A stretch of 64,000 nucleotides of DNA. Origin: an uncultured Gemmatimonadales bacterium. GTDB taxonomy: Bacteria; Gemmatimonadota; Gemmatimonadetes; Longimicrobiales; RSA9. Made by a program: the position numbers. Every line of letters starts with the position of its first letter. The stretch's first letter is position 1. Location of the stretch: positions 800,001 to 864,000 of the forward strand of contig OY970192.1 in NCBI GenBank assembly GCA_963708135.1. Reading direction: 5' to 3'. Below are positions 15,401 through 48,400 of this stretch, one piece after another.

Positions 15401-18400
15401 GCTTCACCTTCGCGCACTTCCTGCGCGACCGCGGCTTCCAGGTCGTGAACGTGCTCGGCGCGCACAGCAAGCGCTGGAAGGAGGTCGTCCACAACCAGGG
15501 GCTGAAGAGCGACGCGAAGGACGCGCTCACGATCACCGACATGGTGGCGCAGGGCGCCTTCGTCGGCTTCCCGTTCCTCGAGCAGGTCTACGCCGACCTG
15601 CGCTACCTGGTCAGCATGCGCGAGCGCCTGACGAAGCTCCGGAGCGCGACGATCGCGCGGCTGAAGGACGTGCTCCAGGTCGTCTGGCCGGAGTTCGAGC
15701 GGCGCTTCAGCAACTTTAGCAAGAAGACGCCGATCGCGATCCTGGAGGCGTTCCCCGGGCCGGATGCGTTCCTGCGCGCACCGAAGCGGCGCGTGCTGAA
15801 GGTGATCCGGGAGGCGAGCCGGGGTCATCTGGGCGCGGCCGCCTACGAGCACCTGCGGTGCGCGGCCGAGGACACCGTGGCGCTCCCCGGCGCGCAGGGC
15901 GTGCTTGCGCAGGAGGTCGGCCTCCAGCTCGATCTCTTGGCCTCCTACGAGCGCCAGATCGCCGAGGTCGACCGCCTCATGGCCGAGCGGCTCGTGGACG
16001 CGCCCGAGGCCGAGGCGCTCCTGTCCGTCCCGAAGCTCGGCGCCGTCACGGCCGCCGTGTTCCTGGGCTCGATCGGCGACCCGCGGGCCTACGACTCCAG
16101 CCGGCAGGCGCTCAAGGTCGGCGGCCTCGGGCTCGTCGTGAGCGAGAGCGGCGCCCAGCGCGGCCGGCCGCGGCTCCCCAAGCGCGGCCGGCCCGAGCTC
16201 CGGCGCCAGATGTACATGTTCGCGGTGCGGAGCGTGAGCCGGGGCGGCCTGTTCCGGGCGGAATACGAGCGGGCGCTCGAGCGCAATCCGAACACGCCGA
16301 AGAAGAAGGTGCTGGTCGCGCTCGCGCGGAAGGCGACGCGGCTCATGTTCGCGCTCGCGAAGGAGCGGCGGCTGTACACGATGGAACCGCCGCGGTAGGT
16401 TGGGGGAATCAACACCATGGGAGGGCCGGCTGGCGCGGTGCGCGCCGGCCCTCCTACAGTGCACCAGACGCAGGCCGGGGGATGGAGCAGAAGAATCCAT
16501 CGAAGGGGCCGTCTCGCACGAACGTGAGGCCTGCTTCCCAAGGTCGGACCCGCTCCCCCTGACCCAGAGTTCGCCACAGTCTCCGAGGAAGGCGTGTCGA
16601 GGGCCACGCGCGGCAGACGCCGCCACGGTGCCTCCGAGGACTTGAGGGTATCGAGCTACGCGATCTCGAGTGGTCTGGGTGCGATTTGACAACTCAGCGC
16701 TTGCCTTCGCCGTCGCGGCGTCGAGCCGGCCGCGACGGAACGGGTGGCGTGTGCCCGGCGCGGATCCGACATCCAGCCTGAGGCGGCCCAGCCGGCCTCC
16801 CATGATGGACCTGATCGCGTCGGGCACCGTCCTCCTCATGGGCATCGGCCCGGCATGGACCCGATAATCCGGATGAAGGGCGCTCTGCGGCCTCCCATGT
16901 GGGACTCGGTCGTGCCGGGCCCCGCCTCCCCGCCGGGCTGGCCGACGGGGAGGTGAGCCGAACCGGGGCCTGTGTGGATCGGGGGATCCGACAGAGGCGC
17001 GAACATCGCGGCCTCGGAAAGTGACACTTGATCGCATCGGCCTCTTCGCTGGTCGTCATCGGTACTCCTCCTCCAAGCGTTGCAGTAGGGCAGTAAACTC
17101 AGCTACAGCCTCCGGAATCCCCTCGCCCAAGTCCTCGTGGAAGTAGTCGCGGAAGAGTAGATCTGGCCAGATCCGCGTCTGCCCAGGCGCGGTGGTGTCG
17201 ACGCGCCAATATCGGGAAGCCCGGCCATCTACTATCTCGAACAGTGAGATCGGTGCCCAGGAGAGCTTCCCATGCTCATTGACGAGGTGCAGCCATGTCC
17301 CGGTGCCCAAGACGTTGGAGTCAACCGAGAATTGGACTCCAACTACCATGTAGGTCTTCCCCAATTCCAATGCGAACTCATGGGCATCAGCAGCTACTCG
17401 GCCCATCCGCATCCGCTGCTCGGCGGTCGGCGAAATGGAGACACACTTGGCTCGCATTATCTGAATACCGTTTTGAATTCCACCCGCACACCGGTTACGA
17501 GGTTTTCGACCCAGTGTGTCTCGAACCGGACTCCGTCGTCTGCCCTAAATATGCTACTACTCTTCTTGACCCAGTCTCCTGCCTCGCCTCCGTACTGCTC
17601 AGCTATCCTGCCAGCATCCCGAAACACGGTTCCGGATCGACCACCGGCAAAGATGGTCCCTCGCTCCGCCATCTGCGCTTTGCTGGCGATCTGTTTCGCC
17701 AGGTTGAGGGCTTCGCCACTTCTGCCGACGCCGCCGATGAAGGCCCCGGGCGAGCCGCACAAAACACCTTCACCACAACCGCCCCCCATAAGGTCGTTGA
17801 AGGTCTGTTCTCCGGCTTCAAGAGCTGCGCCCACGTTCAGCGCCCAAGAACGGCCGGTTCGAGACCCCCAGTTGGCCAGTAATTGGTAACAGGATTCATC
17901 GGAACCGGTGAAGGGACACAGCCCGAACGGATCGGTATAGGAGGCCGGATTATCCCCGTTGTAGCTGTAGAGGTTGAGCCCGCCCGCAAGTCCAATGGGG
18001 TCTTCCTGCGTTAATATCCGCTCAGACGCCTCCGGCCGACTCCCGAGCCGCTATCCCTCTGTCGTTTCTTTCTTTAGCCGCTTCCTTCCCGCCTTCTTCG
18101 TCGTAGTTTTCCGCTTCAGACCTGGATGCGTGTTTTCCCCTACGCAAAGAGGAGGCGTCCCTTCGGCGGTGGTACCTCACGACCGATGTCGCGCGCCGTC
18201 TCGATCCACTCCTCGATCACCGTCTGCACGTTGCCCAGCGCCTCGCGATACGTGGCACCGTCGGCGGCACAGCCCGGCAGCTCGGGCACCTCGGCGATGT
18301 AGGCATCGTCCTCCTCGCTCCAGTAGAGGATGATCTCGTAGCGTGGGTCAGTCTTCGCCATCGGCCGTGCCTCCAAGCTTGTACGTCACGATTACACGCC

Positions 18401-45400: not shown

Positions 45401-48400
45401 CGCGCCCTGGTTGGCGACGCTGAGCGTGACGTAGCCGTTGCTCGGGCTGGACCCGACGGCGTAGGTGATCGTCACGTCGGCGGCGCTGCCCGCCGCGATC
45501 GTGATCGAGCTCTGTACGGAGCAGGACGTAACGGGCGCCACGAACGAGCATCCGAGGTCGTACGTCGTCGTGGGGTTGTTCTTGTTGTCGAGGTGGAAGA
45601 TGGCGCCGTTTCCGCTGCTGTTGGGCGCGACCGTCATGGGCGAGTTCGTCGCCGAGACGGTCGGGAGTCCCGTCCCCGTCTCGGGGCCACCAACCGCGTG
45701 CGCTGGCTGGCCGACGAGCGCCGCGATGGCGCCGAGGGTGAGGATGCGAGCTGCGGAACGAGCGGCAGCTCGAATGGAAGGCCGCGTTCTGGGCATGATG
45801 GCGCTCCCTGCTCGAGGGAATCCCGGAGCCCCGATGCCGGTGCTCCGTGGAGTGGGGCACCATCCTATCTATCGCGTTCGGAGAGGCCGTCGAGGTTCCA
45901 ACGTCCCGATCGGAGGTTCCAACGTACCCGTTCACGGGCAGGATCGCCGGTGGTGGCCGGCCGGGGCGCGGCGGGACGGGCATGGAGCTCCAGCCAGCGG
46001 TCAGCCAGCGCCCGCGGGTCCAGGCCGGCCCGGATCTCGGACACGGACAGCTGCAGCCGGCGGCGCAGCGATTTGCCGAGCGCCGCCGCGTCCGAGAAGC
46101 CGGCCAGGAAGGCCGCGTCCCCGGTTCTCGCGCCACGAGCGATCGAGTTGGCCGCCGGAAGCAGCCGAAACAGGAACTGGCACTGCTCCACGGTCGGGAG
46201 ACCGGCGTCGCGAACCTGGCGGAAGAGGGCGTTCCGACTGACGTGGAGCCGCGCGGCCAGCTCGGCCGGGCTCCACCGTGCGGCGTCGCTTTCCGCCAGC
46301 AGCCGGAGGAACTGGAGAACCACCACGTCCCGGATGGCCAGGGCACGGATGACGCGGCTCGCGACGATTTCCGGCGCGCCGCGGAGGAGGTCACGAATGT
46401 CGCCGCCCAGCTCGGGTCCCGGGAAGAGGAGGCGGACGCCGAACCGGGCGAGCGGGTAGACGCGCCGGACCATCTCCGGCGTCAGGTCGCCGAGGTAGGC
46501 CGCCGTCGGCACGAGCAGGCCCCGTCGGTGGAGGACGGCGATCGTGCGGCGGCCCGGGTCATCGAGCAGCACGGCCGCAAAGACGAACGCGGCCGGCGGA
46601 GCGCGGGACGTGAGGGTCCCGACCACCGCGCCCCAGCTGCCGGCGGATGCGATCGTGGCCGCCCGTCCCGCCGCTTCGTCCACGTCGCGGAACGCAGTCC
46701 CGCCGCTGATGGCCAGGACGAGGATCTCGAGAGGGTGGCGCCGCGCGTTTCCGCCCATGTCATTCCGGCGGTGTGGCGGGAGAGTGTTCGATGCCGACCG
46801 GCGCCCATCGGGCTCGTGGGGAGAGTCGCCGTTGTCTGGCTGGAAGGAGTGGCGAGGGAGTGCGAGCCGGATCGTCGCTGAGCTGCCGGAGGAGCGACAA
46901 GCCAATGGTATGTTGCGTCCAGCCGCCGTCTGACGCAGCCCCGGTTCCGTGACAGAGTTGTCAGAATCGAGTCAAGCTCTGGTTGGCACACGGCTCTGTG
47001 CACAGAACTGCACGGACATTTTCCGCGGGGCCGCCCCTGGCCCGTCCGGCGCCGGCGCCTTACCGTTTGTCCATGAACCCCCCTAGCGCCGTCCGTTGGG
47101 CCGCGGATTCTCGCGCGGTCGAGGTGCTGGACCAGACCCGCCTGCCGGAGGCCGAGGTCTGGCTGCGGCTGGGGTCAGCGGCCGAGGTGGCGGAGGCGAT
47201 CCGGCGGCTGCGCGTCCGCGGCGCCCCCGCCATCGGCATCGCGGCGGCGCGCGGCCTCGCCCTGGAGCTGGCGCTCGCGACGTCGCTCGAGCCGGCGGCG
47301 TTCGATGCCCGGCTCGCCGAGACCGCCGCCACGCTGAAAGGCGCCCGCCCGACCGCGGTGAACCTGGCGTGGGCGGTGGACCGGCTGTGCGCGGTGGCGG
47401 CGGAGCACCGGGGGAAGGGACCGGGGGGCGTCGCCTGCAAGGTGTGGGGCGAGGCGGACCGGATCGCGGCGGAGGACGCGGCAATGTGCCGCGCCATCGG
47501 CGAGCACGCGCTCGGGCTGTTCCCGGAGCCCGACGGGCGGCCGCTCGAGGTGCTCACGCACTGCAACGCGGGGGCGCTGGCGACGGGCGGGATCGGCACG
47601 GCGCTGGCCGGCGTCTACCTGGCGGCGGAGCGGGGGCGCTCTGTGCACGTGTGGGTGGACGAGACGCGGCCGCTGCTCCAGGGGAGCCGGCTCACCGCGT
47701 GGGAGCTGGGCCGGGCGGGCATCCCGGCCACGGTCATCGTGGACTCGGTGGCGGCGTCGCTCATGGCGGCGGGGAAGGTGGACCTCGTGATCACGGGCGC
47801 GGACCGCATCGCGGCCAACGGCGACGCGGCGAACAAGATCGGGACCTACGCGCTGGCGGTGCTCGCGCGCCACCACGCGGTCCCGTTCTACGTGGCGGCG
47901 CCGAGCAGCACCGTGGATCCGGCCACGCCGACGGGGGCGGCGATCCCGATCGAGGAGCGCGGGGCGGACGAGGTGCGGCGCGGGTTCGGGCGGCTCACCG
48001 CGCCGGCGACGGTGCCCGTCTTCGCGCCGGCGTTCGACGTCACGCCGGCGGCGCTGATCGCCGCGATCGTGACGGACCGCGGCGTGCTGCGGCCGCCGTA
48101 CCGGTTCGGGGGAGGCGGTTGAGATGAACGGGGTGCTGGCGATCGATCAGGGGACGACGGGCACGACCTGCCTCATCATCGACGAGCACGGGGAGGTCCG
48201 GGCGCGCGCGTATGCTGAGCTGCCGCAACACTTTCCGCGGCCCGGCTGGGTCGAGCACGACGCGGAGGAGATCTGGGCCGTGACGCTGCGCGTGGCCCGC
48301 GAGGCGGTGGAGGCCGCGCGCGCGCTCGCGCAGCGGCTGGACGTCGTGGCGATCGGGATCACGAACCAGCGCGAGACGGCGGTGGTCTGGGACCGCGCCA

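Follow-up and report, generated by a model that had tools for sequence, protein, structure and literature searches.

In the model of Rhs C-terminal displacement, orphan toxin tips keep variable pieces of the Rhs core and move by homologous recombination. Integrative elements that bring a replacement 3' end for their target gene are known from tRNA-gene islands and from e14 and phage 21 in icd, and IMEX elements (CTXphi/RS1-type) use the host XerCD recombinases at dif. Rhs C-terminal displacement and orphan toxin-immunity modules were reportedly described by Jackson et al. in 2009 and Koskiniemi et al. in 2014. Excerpts of earlier work mention polyimmunity loci beside XerC/D-like recombinases (Zhang et al., 2012) as well as rAID-1 and Rhs poly-immunity arrays with XerC/D-like recombinases (Ross et al., 2019; Martinkus et al., 2026, Curr Biol 36:176), and the citation of the arrays names Xenorhabdus and Photorhabdus. 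Here, we compare with these systems a locus in a 64,000-nucleotide stretch of DNA from an uncultured Gemmatimonadales bacterium (the window), in which two copies of an element encoding a XerC-like recombinase and a primase lie at the core ends of rhs genes.

Results

Self-BLAST of the window gave a match of 8105 columns at 98.1% identity between positions 17914-26017 and 28096-36199, and a MAFFT alignment assessed per 100 bp left only five differences between copies A and B over 18001-25300, with divergence on both sides (Table 1). There are five core-end repeats of ~101 bp; the left repeats of the two copies are identical to each other, and the right ones start abruptly at ACGCAGGAAGACCCC, directly after element sequence. 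Both the near-identical copies in rhs genes and the five repeats with abrupt right-hand starts had been recorded by the first-pass annotation and were recovered here. From nt 25 on, the left repeat is element-derived and the right repeat target-derived, and R_A outside its exchange window is chromosome-type, with 93% identity to the rhs3 core end. Each copy is flanked by an Rhs core end on one side and by a displaced, intact old tip on the other. In both copies every gene of the element is intact, and they hold the only two primase copies of the host genome.

Table 1. Coordinates of the element copies, their genes and the rhs genes in the window.
Feature	Position	Strand	Remarks
Element copy A	18012..24682	-	~6.67 kb; exchange window of left repeat to last element-specific base before right repeat
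Left core-end repeat of copy A, attL-like	24585..24685	-	exchange window 24662-24682; element-type from nt 25 on
Element toxin tip	24071..24584	-	in frame with core end; 170 aa beyond repeat; no Pfam family
Putative immunity gene	23625..24074	-	149 aa; start overlaps tip stop by 4 nt; no family match
RstR-family HTH repressor	22854..23381	+	divergent from primase
Primase	19844..22921	-	1025 aa; CHC2 zinc ribbon, DnaG catalytic core, Toprim, C-terminal part with Walker A motif
XerC-like tyrosine recombinase	18885..19847	-	320 aa
hicA and hicB toxin-antitoxin pair	18140..18614	-	hicA 18348-18614, hicB 18140-18376
Conserved non-coding right end of element	18012..18139	-	~128 bp
Right core-end repeat of copy A, attR-like (R_A)	17914..18014	-	exchange window 17991-18011
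Displaced old tip A	17457..17913	-	intact frame running on from right repeat; own start codon absent
Immunity-position ORF behind old tip A	17056..17457	-	133 aa; no family
rhsA core fragment, 5'-truncated	24686..27044	-	84% to rhs3 overall; last ~700 bp identical to rhs3 and rhsB
Element copy B	28194..34864	-	5 differences from copy A over 7.3 kb
Left core-end repeat of copy B	34767..34867	-	identical to left repeat of copy A
Right core-end repeat of copy B (R_B)	28096..28196	-	T/C difference from R_A at nt 18, divergent after ~nt 44
Displaced old tip B	27606..28095	-	intact frame
DUF6966 ORF, immunity position behind old tip B	27294..27596	-	Pfam
rhsB core fragment, 5'-truncated	34868..36205	-	abuts IS-related sequence; identical to rhs3 core over its length
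rhs3, full-length	40670..45796	-	1708 aa; BACON_2 and RHS repeats; own tip, no element
rhs3 core end, attB-like empty-site reference	41130..41230	-	exchange window 41207-41227
DUF7674 ORF, immunity position behind rhs3	40293..40670	-	Pfam

Each copy encodes, on the minus strand except for the repressor, a toxin tip, an immunity protein, an RstR-type repressor, a DnaG/Toprim primase, a XerC-like recombinase and HicAB, in agreement with the enzymes, repressor and HicAB listed in the first-pass annotation. The recombinase matched Phage_integrase (PF00589, E=8.4e-40) and PF02899, has an intact catalytic domain with the R..HxxR..H..Y residues seen by eye in its translation, and passed the XerC-like subfamily model NF002331 (400.7 bits against a cut-off of 371). 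It failed the models of chromosomal XerC and XerD (TIGR02224, 230.5 against 335; TIGR02225, 224.3 against 329.6) and of the integron integrase IntI (TIGR02249, 116.6 bits against 265; NF011946, 78.2 against 435), and the other Xer-like genes of the host genome are 36-41% identical to it. The primase matched Zn_ribbon_DnaG and Toprim and contains a P-loop. The repressor, whose true start is probably internal to the called ORF, matched HTH_3 and the RstR subfamily (85.4 bits, cut-off 80), and HicA and HicB_lk_antitox were matched at E=1.4e-6 and E=1.4e-8, respectively. The element tip has a glycine-rich and helical N-terminal part and a small C-terminal domain; its fold model was unusable (pLDDT 43.5). 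A phage or phage satellite is not indicated: structural genes are absent from the element, and the searches gave one weak match in IMG/VR (35% over 78 aa) and two partial matches among 50,697 phage records. An assignment to IMEX was likewise rejected, as the element has a recombinase gene of its own and lies between rhs core ends.

The host genes have the features of an Rhs polymorphic toxin locus, namely a YD/RHS core (PF05593 matches in rhsA, rhsB and rhs3), a DPxGL core end, variable tips and ORFs in the immunity position. Four different tips follow the core ends, the element tip being identical in its two copies. Counted from TQEDP, the frames comprise 184 codons for old tip A (stop at 17457), 203 for the element tip, 195 for old tip B (stop at 27606) and 185 for rhs3. 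These translations bear out the earlier claim that a new tip is fused in frame while the old one lies intact behind the element without a start. As also claimed, the tips lack Pfam matches at E<=0.01; among the tips and immunity proteins of the window, the only matches were DUF6966 and DUF7674 in two immunity-position ORFs. Rearrangement of the locus by IS110 is equally apparent, with IS110 and Mutator transposases and a junction sequence that is present three times. Both host rhs copies are 5'-truncated fragments, and delivery of the swapped tip in this organism at present is therefore improbable. The site in full-length rhs3 is intact but element-free, and thus the swap is not demonstrably functional here.

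To the left of the element, rhsA, rhsB and the element-free rhs3 have no mismatches over ~700 bp up to the repeat. Since the core is equally identical in rhs3, this identity is a property of the rhs cores rather than of the element, and rhs3 can serve as an empty-site reference. The first-pass annotation had taken the identity (~600 bp) as a possible sign of duplication or homologous spread, a concern that the comparison with rhs3 answers. Its statement that no empty site was seen holds for an allelic site, and has to be amended by the paralogous site in rhs3. Neither an excised circle nor an allelic empty site of this organism was seen in the only run containing the stretch, the short-read contigs of which break at the repeats, as had been noted. 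The right junction had no exact match when metagenome contigs were scanned for it.

When compared with rhs3, the exchange falls in the first 21 nt (ACGCAGGAAGACCCCATYGGA) of the ~100-nt repeat in both copies, because the left side diverges from nt 25 of the repeat and the element sequence on the right side stops one base before ACGCAGG. Among 17 distinct sites, the site codons are near-invariant (GAA in 17/17, CCC in 17/17) and the next codons vary (GGC in 8/17, TTA in 4/14). No longer stretch is identical between the two site types than these 21 nt, and short-homology recombination would therefore be biased to the same spot as well. Moreover, copies A and B may not be independent of each other, judging from their sequences: R_A and R_B share 44 nt except for the T/C at nt 18, and the second copy could therefore stem from homologous exchange.

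As annotated before, primase orthologues of 60-63% identity occur in only two of the 400 other genomes of the phylum (401 with G000), G025 and G040. The several primase-XerC copies among core-end motifs that had been claimed for one relative were recovered in G040 as three full primase-XerC copies and a fragment. There, 9 of 11 orphan core ends begin at the same nucleotide behind a conserved non-coding stretch of ~170 bp, the right sides of the near-identical elements 1 and 2 diverge just after the same ~20 nt, and the exchange lies likewise within the first 21 nt of the core-end repeat. One tip cassette of G040 is found both fused to a full-length rhs gene and behind an element-type end; the two settings match at 99.8% over 2359 bp, and the identity begins at the site. 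G040 also has enzyme-free short cassettes of 1.2-1.3 kb in tandem, consisting of a tip, an immunity gene and the conserved end, and a metagenome locus, L083, has a 3.3-kb cassette without enzymes. The L083 primase is 75% identical to ours, and the right end is kept over ~135 bp despite a different adjoining cargo gene; blocks of this end are common to G040 and Enterobacterales.

Relatives of the primase-XerC pair are spread over many phyla; 406 relatives were counted in genome contigs and at least 526 in metagenomes, and Xenorhabdus and Photorhabdus also have this primase family. The element block is 50-62% identical across phyla, occurs on plasmids as well, and can be multi-copy within one genome, in tandem and at several loci. 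XerC lies behind the primase in all 51 metagenome loci with enough flank. With a core-end HMM whose seeds came from the very loci studied here, 103 of 103 matches in genomes and 45 of 45 in metagenomes lay on the primase strand. Counted per assembly with enough flank and excluding this genome, a core end was present upstream in 20/26, downstream in 17/30 and on both sides in 12/20. The association is thus not universal, as ~6/26 assemblies are without an upstream and 13/30 without a downstream core end; the metagenome figures were 11/21 upstream and 9/23 downstream. Right-side core ends of relatives start abruptly behind a conserved non-coding element end. In Enterobacterales, ~130 bp of non-coding sequence common to all 11 right ends examined stop exactly at GACCCGATAGG (DPIG), and the shared core-end identity comprises the first ~12 nt only. 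In other lineages the element flanks CdiA VENN tips, and the tips and immunity genes of relatives include the polymorphic-toxin families Tox-REase-9, Imm-NTF2-2 and Imm70 as well as genes annotated as endonuclease, HNH and NTF2 immunity. On Leptospira plasmids, the same trio of HTH protein, primase and recombinase lies beside ParAB as plasmid backbone.

A circular plasmid record of Lonsdalea populi (11,289 bp) contains one complete element plus a remnant; its two core ends are of the orphan type, and an Rhs core is absent. The two ends overlap in each of three metagenome contigs, with the break point in the primase (L137), in xerC (L143) or away from the site (L122); in L143, Tox-REase-9 and DUF4304 directly follow xerC. 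Collapsed tandem arrays could account for these circular-looking contigs and even for the Lonsdalea record.

Discussion

We consider it likely that the locus harbors a site-specific integrative, probably self-replicating element of ~6.7 kb that swaps Rhs toxin tips, and comparative sequence data lend support to the first-pass interpretation of a mobile tip-swapping element. This reading is favored because the exchange maps to 21 nt in both copies and in G040, because the association of the primase-XerC module with Rhs core ends keeps a fixed orientation across phyla, because the right core end directly adjoins a conserved non-coding end of the element, and because the only sites that accompany the module in circular records and contigs are of the orphan type.

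An integrative plasmid could instead enter by homologous (Campbell-type) recombination via the ~100-bp core-end homology. Homologous recombination is the classical explanation of Rhs orphan tips, the element is homologous to every core end over 100 bp, and the stretch shared by R_A and R_B would suffice for spread by homology. The trio beside ParAB in Leptospira suggests that the XerC-like enzyme might be a multimer resolvase only. However, all informative junctions (copies A and B, elements 1 and 2 of G040) lie within the initial ~21 of ~100 nt, the synonymous positions of the site codons do not vary, the ~12 nt common to the Enterobacterales right ends are too short for RecA, and the conserved end of 130-170 bp directly abuts the site in distant lineages. 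We thus regard this explanation as unlikely.

It appears still less probable that a fixed recombinase collects tip-immunity cassettes in a resident, integron-like platform with an immobile primase-XerC block. The enzyme-free cassettes in G040 and L083 would fit such a platform, as would the polyimmunity loci adjoining XerC/D recombinases that excerpts of an earlier report mention (Zhang et al., 2012). The block itself, however, is multi-copy, in tandem and at several loci per genome, carries a replication gene and toxin-antitoxin pairs, and was found in just two of the 400 other genomes of the phylum yet is 50-62% identical across phyla and present on plasmids; moreover, the recombinase failed the integron-integrase models. 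That a decayed passenger without present mobility reached two copies in a single event, either a segmental duplication or a rearrangement of a tandem rhs array driven by IS110, is very improbable: the heavily rearranged locus and the near identity of the copies would agree with it, but the two copies have different old tips, different core ends at these tips and different upstream cores, both limits of the duplication fall at att sites, the element genes are intact and the architecture recurs across phyla.

For a site-specific integrative element, we propose the following mechanism. The attachment site would be the DNA for the conserved Rhs core end (TQEDPIG, containing the DPxG of the DPxGL motif). 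In the circular form, a ~100-bp core-end copy would adjoin the non-coding right end and continue in frame into the toxin tip of the element, with the immunity gene next. The XerC-like recombinase would exchange strands within the ~21 bp at the start of this copy. After integration, the resident Rhs shell would read into the new tip, and the old tip and its immunity gene would stay intact behind the element, lacking a start codon. The primase/P-loop protein, under the RstR-type repressor, may replicate the excised circle and HicAB may stabilize it. With the site present in every core end, successive rounds of insertion and deletion would give rise to arrays of orphan tips; the enzyme-free cassettes may be moved in trans or be deletion products. 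The element presumably benefits when cells without its immunity gene are killed. As relatives in many phyla likewise sit at Rhs core ends, this looks like a widespread means of exchanging bacterial weapons.

Rhs C-terminal displacement resembles the present case in the conserved DPxGL core end, the variable tips with immunity genes and the silent downstream orphans that can be re-fused. Here, however, the orphans begin at a single fixed nucleotide, directly preceded by a conserved end of the element, and a recombinase, a primase, a repressor and a toxin-antitoxin pair accompany the incoming tip. With tRNA-gene islands, e14 and phage 21, the element shares a tyrosine recombinase, a predicted attP containing the 3' end of the target, and a target that stays readable with its old 3' end behind the element. 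Whereas those elements restore the same product, this one would substitute its own cargo for a functional C-terminal domain, and the toxin gene that it targets is multi-copy and horizontally variable.

Polyimmunity loci, rAID-1 and Rhs poly-immunity arrays also have Xer-like recombinases adjoining orphan immunity genes or toxin remnants; the excerpts of these reports place recombinases by immunity arrays and mention no primase-bearing element with a core-end att site and its own tip in frame, although the work of Martinkus et al. (2026) may overlap with the present findings. Like integrons, the locus type comprises tandem promoter-less cassettes, each with a conserved terminal recombination sequence, that a tyrosine recombinase would move. 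Unlike in integrons, the cassettes form in-frame fusions with a protein instead of being set behind a promoter, and the enzyme block is itself a multi-copy cassette with a recombinase outside the integron-integrase models. CTXphi/RS1-type elements are similar in their RstR-family repressor, their small, replicative and integrative nature and their tandem arrays, whereas the element described here encodes its own recombinase and sits in rhs.

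Element copies and their gene content

The first-pass annotation had described two near-identical, repeat-bounded copies of an element in rhs genes, which our comparisons bear out. In a self-BLAST of the window, 17914-26017 matched 28096-36199 over 8105 columns with 98.1% identity, and a MAFFT alignment counted per 100 bp gave only five differences between copies A and B in 18001-25300, with divergence on either side. The bounding repeat is the DNA for the conserved end of the Rhs core (TQEDPIG, DPxGL; here the core end), and a fifth copy of it lies in rhs3, an rhs gene free of the element. 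On the minus strand, the order is rhs core, left repeat, tip (the variable toxin C-terminus), an ORF at the immunity position, the divergent HTH gene, primase, recombinase, hicA/hicB, non-coding DNA, right repeat and an old tip displaced behind the element.

Features of the rhs region and other repeats of the window (window positions; element genes in copy A coordinates)
Feature	Position	Strand	Remarks
R_A, right repeat of copy A	17914-18014		~101 bp
L_A, left repeat of copy A	24585-24685		~101 bp
R_B, right repeat of copy B	28096-28196		~101 bp
L_B, left repeat of copy B	34767-34867		~101 bp
rhs3 core-end repeat	41130-41230		~101 bp
Element tip	to 24071	minus	170 aa; in frame with core end
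ORF behind element tip	23625-24074	minus	149 aa; start overlaps tip stop
HTH gene	22854-23381	plus (divergent)	passed RstR subfamily model, 85.4 bits (cut-off 80)
Primase	19844-22921	minus	1025 aa; Zn_ribbon_DnaG, DNAG_N, Toprim
Tyrosine recombinase	18885-19847	minus	320 aa; Phage_integrase E=8e-40; XerC-like NF002331, 400.7 bits (cut-off 371)
hicA + hicB	18140-18614	minus	HicA and HicB families confirmed
Non-coding right end	18012-18139		128 bp, between hicAB and right repeat
AT-rich palindromes	18668-18690, 23560-23580		copy B: 28850-28872, 33742-33762
rhs3	40670-45796	minus	1708 aa; sole full-length rhs; BACON_2 + RHS repeats
Junction sequence	16793-16980, 27040-27292, 40047-40292		190-250 bp
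Orphan pair	12605-13380	minus	Ntox10 E=2.7e-45, Imm27 E=7.9e-18
Orphans akin to old tip B	about 13380-13620 and 38100-38300	minus	CPPETEWH...
Internal repeats	1118-1914		multiple ~75-83% self-matches
58-117-bp repeats	54067-54548 (near 54.1-54.5 kb)		92-93%

The proposed gene content (recombinase, Toprim primase, RstR-like repressor and HicAB) was likewise supported by domain and subfamily models, and a Walker A motif was seen in the C-terminal part of the primase. The recombinase failed the models for XerC, XerD and integron integrase. No conjugation or capsid genes were found in the element. The genome, a single 5.45-Mb contig, holds only two copies of the primase; the third match is the chromosomal DnaG, with 29% identity.

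The element tip is in frame with the resident core, and the old tip behind each right repeat retains an intact frame and has no start codon. The frames read from TQEDP comprise 184, 203 (the same in both copies), 195 and 185 codons, i.e., four different tips, none of which belongs to a Pfam family, in agreement with the earlier description. The fold predicted for the element tip from its single sequence was unusable (pLDDT 43.5). In the protein atlas, this tip lies closest to MafB-labelled clusters (0.93), but no more than 148 features are shared, which makes this a weak lead only.

Rfam returned no match at E<=0.1 on 16500-29000, so that the conserved right end does not correspond to a known RNA. 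A promoter and terminator scan of 17000-25000 gave no signal above the shuffle expectation and thus lends no support to an outward promoter in the right end that would serve the old immunity gene. The HTH-primase-XerC block is flanked by two AT-rich palindromes (TTACGTAAC..GTTACGTAA type), the first in the gap between the immunity gene and the HTH gene, the second in that between xerC and hicA. These palindromes, possibly operators or terminators, were not found in the element of G040, another genome of the phylum.

The exchange is confined to 21 nucleotides

Identity between the two copies continues ~600 bp past the left repeat, and the first-pass annotation had feared that the second copy arose by duplication or homologous spread. 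This reading of the identity did not hold: rhsA and rhsB, the element-bearing cores, and the element-free rhs3 have no mismatch in the ~700 bp that lead up to the repeat (24664-25363 on copy A; three-way alignment), and the rhsB core equals rhs3 over its full length. The identity is therefore a property of rhs cores rather than of the element, and rhs3 can be used as an empty-site reference.

Compared with rhs3, the left repeat shows its first difference at its nucleotide 25. At the right border, the last element-specific base is the one before ACGCAGG, and what remains of R_A resembles rhs3 (93%). Together, these limits confine the exchange to ACGCAGGAAGACCCCATYGGA, 21 nt out of ~100 nt of homology and the same in both copies. 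R_A and R_B have 44 nt in common save one T/C at nucleotide 18 and diverge beyond, so the core end that each carries is the one native to its old tip. The left repeat is of the element type, and the right repeat is of the target type beyond the 21 nt.

The site codons are nearly invariant in 17 distinct sites from three sources, namely the window genome, G040 and the metagenome contig L083 (GAA 17/17, CCC 17/17, ACG 15/17, GAC 15/17), whereas those directly behind the site vary (GGC 8/17, TTA 4/14). When right ends were folded as DNA, a GGGGTC...GACCCC hairpin recurred at the site in G040 and was absent from the window right end, and we do not claim an arm structure of the lox or dif type. The motif AA[GC]TA[CT]GA[CT], a pattern picked post hoc with a background expectation of 0.6% per window, occurs in the right end of 9 of the 33 distinct right sites, all from Gemmatimonadota or Enterobacterales, and is absent from those of the remaining lineages as sampled. 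Copies from Multivoradales are mosaic between loci and yielded no clean independent junctions.

Relatives within the phylum

Besides the window genome, only G025 and G040 among 401 genomes (the window genome included) carry primase orthologues, with 60-63% identity, as had been reported. In G040, one full rhs gene is followed by 11 more core-end motifs, three primase-XerC copies and one primase fragment. Nine of these 11 orphan motifs start at one same nucleotide behind a conserved non-coding stretch of ~170 bp, the other two behind core fragments. Elements 1 and 2 of this genome are 99.6% identical over 6.8 kb, and their right sides diverge straight after the same ~20 nt. Moreover, four units of 1.2-1.3 kb consist of a tip, an immunity gene and the conserved end, and nothing else. 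One tip cassette (99.8% over 2359 bp) occurs twice, once as a fusion with the full-length rhs and once behind an element-type end. Its identity begins at the site, a start that is forced because the sequences upstream are not homologous; what is informative is the single, fixed nucleotide at which element end and core end meet in every copy.

The arrangement of the window recurs on L083, whose primase is 75% identical. Conservation of the right end extends over ~135 bp even though the neighboring cargo gene is not the same, being HicB in the window and a Gp49/HTH_37 pair on L083.

A primase-recombinase family across phyla

We found 406 tblastn-confirmed stretches of the primase family in species-representative genomes and at least 526 in metagenome contigs, typically at 47-62% identity. 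The hosts include Gamma-, Beta- and Deltaproteobacteria, Acidobacteriota, Verrucomicrobia, Myxococcota and others, with Pectobacterium, Dickeya, Serratia, Photorhabdus, Xenorhabdus and Ralstonia among the genera. XerC lies behind the primase in all 51 metagenome loci with at least 1.5 kb downstream, and the genome set contains 79 primase-XerC modules.

The orientation of the module relative to core ends is fixed across phyla. With a core-end HMM built iteratively from these same loci, a procedure whose circularity affects detection and leaves strand and position untouched, all 103 matches lay on the primase strand (39 of 74 sequences), as did 45/45 in metagenomes (33 of 78 loci). Among modules with enough flank, counts that are not independent because several loci overlap, a core end was located within 4.5 kb upstream in 35/43, within 3.5 kb downstream in 31/46 and on both sides in 19/29. 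Counted per assembly without the window genome, using a locus-to-assembly map entered by hand from the relatives table, the values were 20/26, 17/30 and 12/20, respectively; metagenome loci gave 11/21, 9/23 and 3/9.

Right-side motifs begin a few codons past a stop, with an offset of 10 codons in the loci of Enterobacterales, 15 in the window and 6 in G040. The 11 right ends examined in Enterobacterales (Pectobacterium, Brenneria, Edaphovirga, Serratia, Lonsdalea) all have ~130 bp of non-coding DNA in common, which stops exactly at GACCCGATAGG, the DPIG codons; at eight core-fused sites, unrelated coding sequence extends up to the same point. The junction lies elsewhere in other lineages, beginning, e.g., at YNYFRTYDP in three loci (L024, L032, L039).

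Tips and immunity proteins of the relatives include Tox-REase-9, Imm-NTF2-2 and DUF4304. Several exceptions to the Rhs pattern are linked to other polymorphic toxins. Imm70 flanks the module in Rhodanobacter, and in Erwinia psidii (L067), PT-VENN domains lie upstream of the primase (E=1e-19 and 1e-16). On the Enterobacter plasmid pJBIWA003_1 (L081), the set of HTH, primase, xerC, DinJ and RelE is repeated in tandem at least three times, and behind each copy come orphans that start at a VENN motif (CdiA-type). Apparently, the family also serves contact-dependent inhibition toxins. A direct repeat flanking the module in Trinickia terrae (L073, 5503-6900 and 15613-17292) encodes a glycine-rich stretch (GIGVATGLQxRFDWK...) without a Pfam family, which may be a further type of pre-toxin region used as target. 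In Dyella acidiphila (L047), a NikA-like mobilization protein (8626-9150, E=1.2e-16) is encoded upstream of a module with no Rhs core end nearby, hinting that some members are mobilizable.

Circular records and plasmid relatives

A complete circular plasmid record of 11,289 bp from Lonsdalea populi contains one full element (endonuclease tip, NTF2 immunity gene, HTH, SymE, primase, XerC, DinJ-RelE) and the remnant of a second (HNH tip, immunity gene, truncated primase). Its own annotation names a non-specific endonuclease, an HNH endonuclease and an NTF2 immunity protein. With two orphan-type core ends and no Rhs core, it has the configuration predicted for an excised form. Four contigs have exact terminal overlaps. 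The overlap of L006 is the core end itself and thus ambiguous; the break lies inside the primase in L137, inside xerC in L143 (order xerC, Tox-REase-9 tip, DUF4304, HTH, primase) and, in L122, away from its single, right-type core end. Such circular records are supportive rather than decisive, as collapsed tandem arrays would look alike.

Short-read contigs from the one run containing the stretch (share 0.90) break at the repeats over 17000-36999, as the earlier annotation had stated for public contigs. Their only back-joint, from 27222 to 17000 with 32 foreign letters between, stems from the junction repeat and not from an element circle. The 25-nt right junction had no exact match in metagenome contigs.

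On Leptospira plasmids, the HTH-primase-recombinase trio adjoins ParAB, which makes it an apparent plasmid-type backbone. In L. interrogans plasmid p6 (L080) and 12 more Leptospira plasmid records, the trio shows 41-44% identity and has ParA/ParB and RelE/HicA genes as neighbors, with a very large gene annotated as peptidase M23 on either side.

State of the rhs locus

IS110 and Mutator transposases are interspersed in the locus. rhsA can be aligned with rhs3 only from 27044 downward, and rhsB is a fragment of 650 aa that abuts IS-related sequence. Both element-bearing copies are truncated orphans, and the swapped tip is therefore probably not delivered in this genome at present. Behind each of the three ancestral tip-immunity units lies a junction sequence, which continues into an IS110 copy twice and straight into the truncated rhsA core once.

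The Ntox10-Imm27 orphan pair has no element right end beside it, the 21-nt right-end motif occurring only twice in the window. Two other orphans, akin to old tip B, start abruptly at YTDPFGLCP, the second DPxGL and a junction other than that of the element. Both are preceded by a common sequence (~80% identical) and have transposase genes of the Mutator and IS110 types as neighbors, pointing to another, unrelated route by which orphan tips may form. The repeats in 1118-1914 and near 54 kb are unrelated to the rhs locus.

Discussion

We consider it likely that the two copies represent a site-specific integrative element that swaps the tips of Rhs proteins. Strand exchange by the XerC-like enzyme would occur inside the 21 bp, the partners being a circular attP, composed of right end, core end and tip, and any core end. 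The primase/P-loop protein would replicate the circle under RstR-type control, and HicAB, elsewhere DinJ-RelE or HigBA, would stabilize the element. Repeated insertion, together with deletion between directly repeated sites, could build and reshuffle orphan arrays, with the short cassettes either moved in trans or left as deletion products. Carriers would kill non-carriers.

The main rival is homologous integration, with XerC serving only as a resolvase. Given the ParAB context in Leptospira, the recombinase may be a resolvase. On balance, we regard homologous integration as unlikely. A phage-like element was rejected, as viral contigs gave one weak partial match and phage records two partial, DnaG-like ones.

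Beyond the site-specific tip-swapping element itself, we tentatively entertain a broader reading, possible though not quite probable. Small selfish episomes, spread across phyla, might parasitize polymorphic-toxin delivery scaffolds (Rhs core ends and, in other lineages, the CdiA VENN region), their site-specific insertion causing the weapon of the host to fire the toxin of the element, which also supplies the matching immunity. Cells lacking or losing the element would be killed by their neighbors, an addiction or greenbeard drive at the population level, and the orphan and poly-immunity arrays beside Rhs and CDI genes of many bacteria might largely be the fossil record of repeated invasions and cassette shuffling by the recombinase, not of homologous recombination alone.

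So far, new tips and orphan arrays of Rhs and CDI toxins have been explained mainly by homologous recombination, with donors unknown. If true, a dedicated and widespread vehicle that combines tip and immunity gene with a recombinase, a replicase, a repressor and a toxin-antitoxin pair would provide a concrete donor, an enzyme and a defined site for tip exchange. Its interest lies in being concrete, testable and abundant across bacteria; the question would become directly testable, and experiments are within reach because the family occurs in well-studied genera.

The full-text literature searched contained no description of a primase-XerC element in rhs. Ralstonia strain Po82 carries the primase-XerC-rhs arrangement, and the Ralstonia T6SS atlas makes no mention of a primase, recombinase, XerC or integrase. 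XerC/D recombinases adjoin polyimmunity loci according to Zhang et al. (2012), and the vehicle, if real, would explain why Xer-like recombinases recur beside immunity arrays. Martinkus et al. (2026, Curr Biol 36:176), as cited in a 2026 preprint that names Xenorhabdus and Photorhabdus, may overlap with our finding; both genera carry the primase family of the element.

If confirmed, the system would amount to a mobile element with a cargo that functions only once it has been fused in frame to a protein of the host, and would offer a natural, site-specific means of swapping protein C-termini. The known systems with which it is to be compared are icd- and tRNA-integrating elements, integrons, IMEX elements and classical C-terminal displacement.
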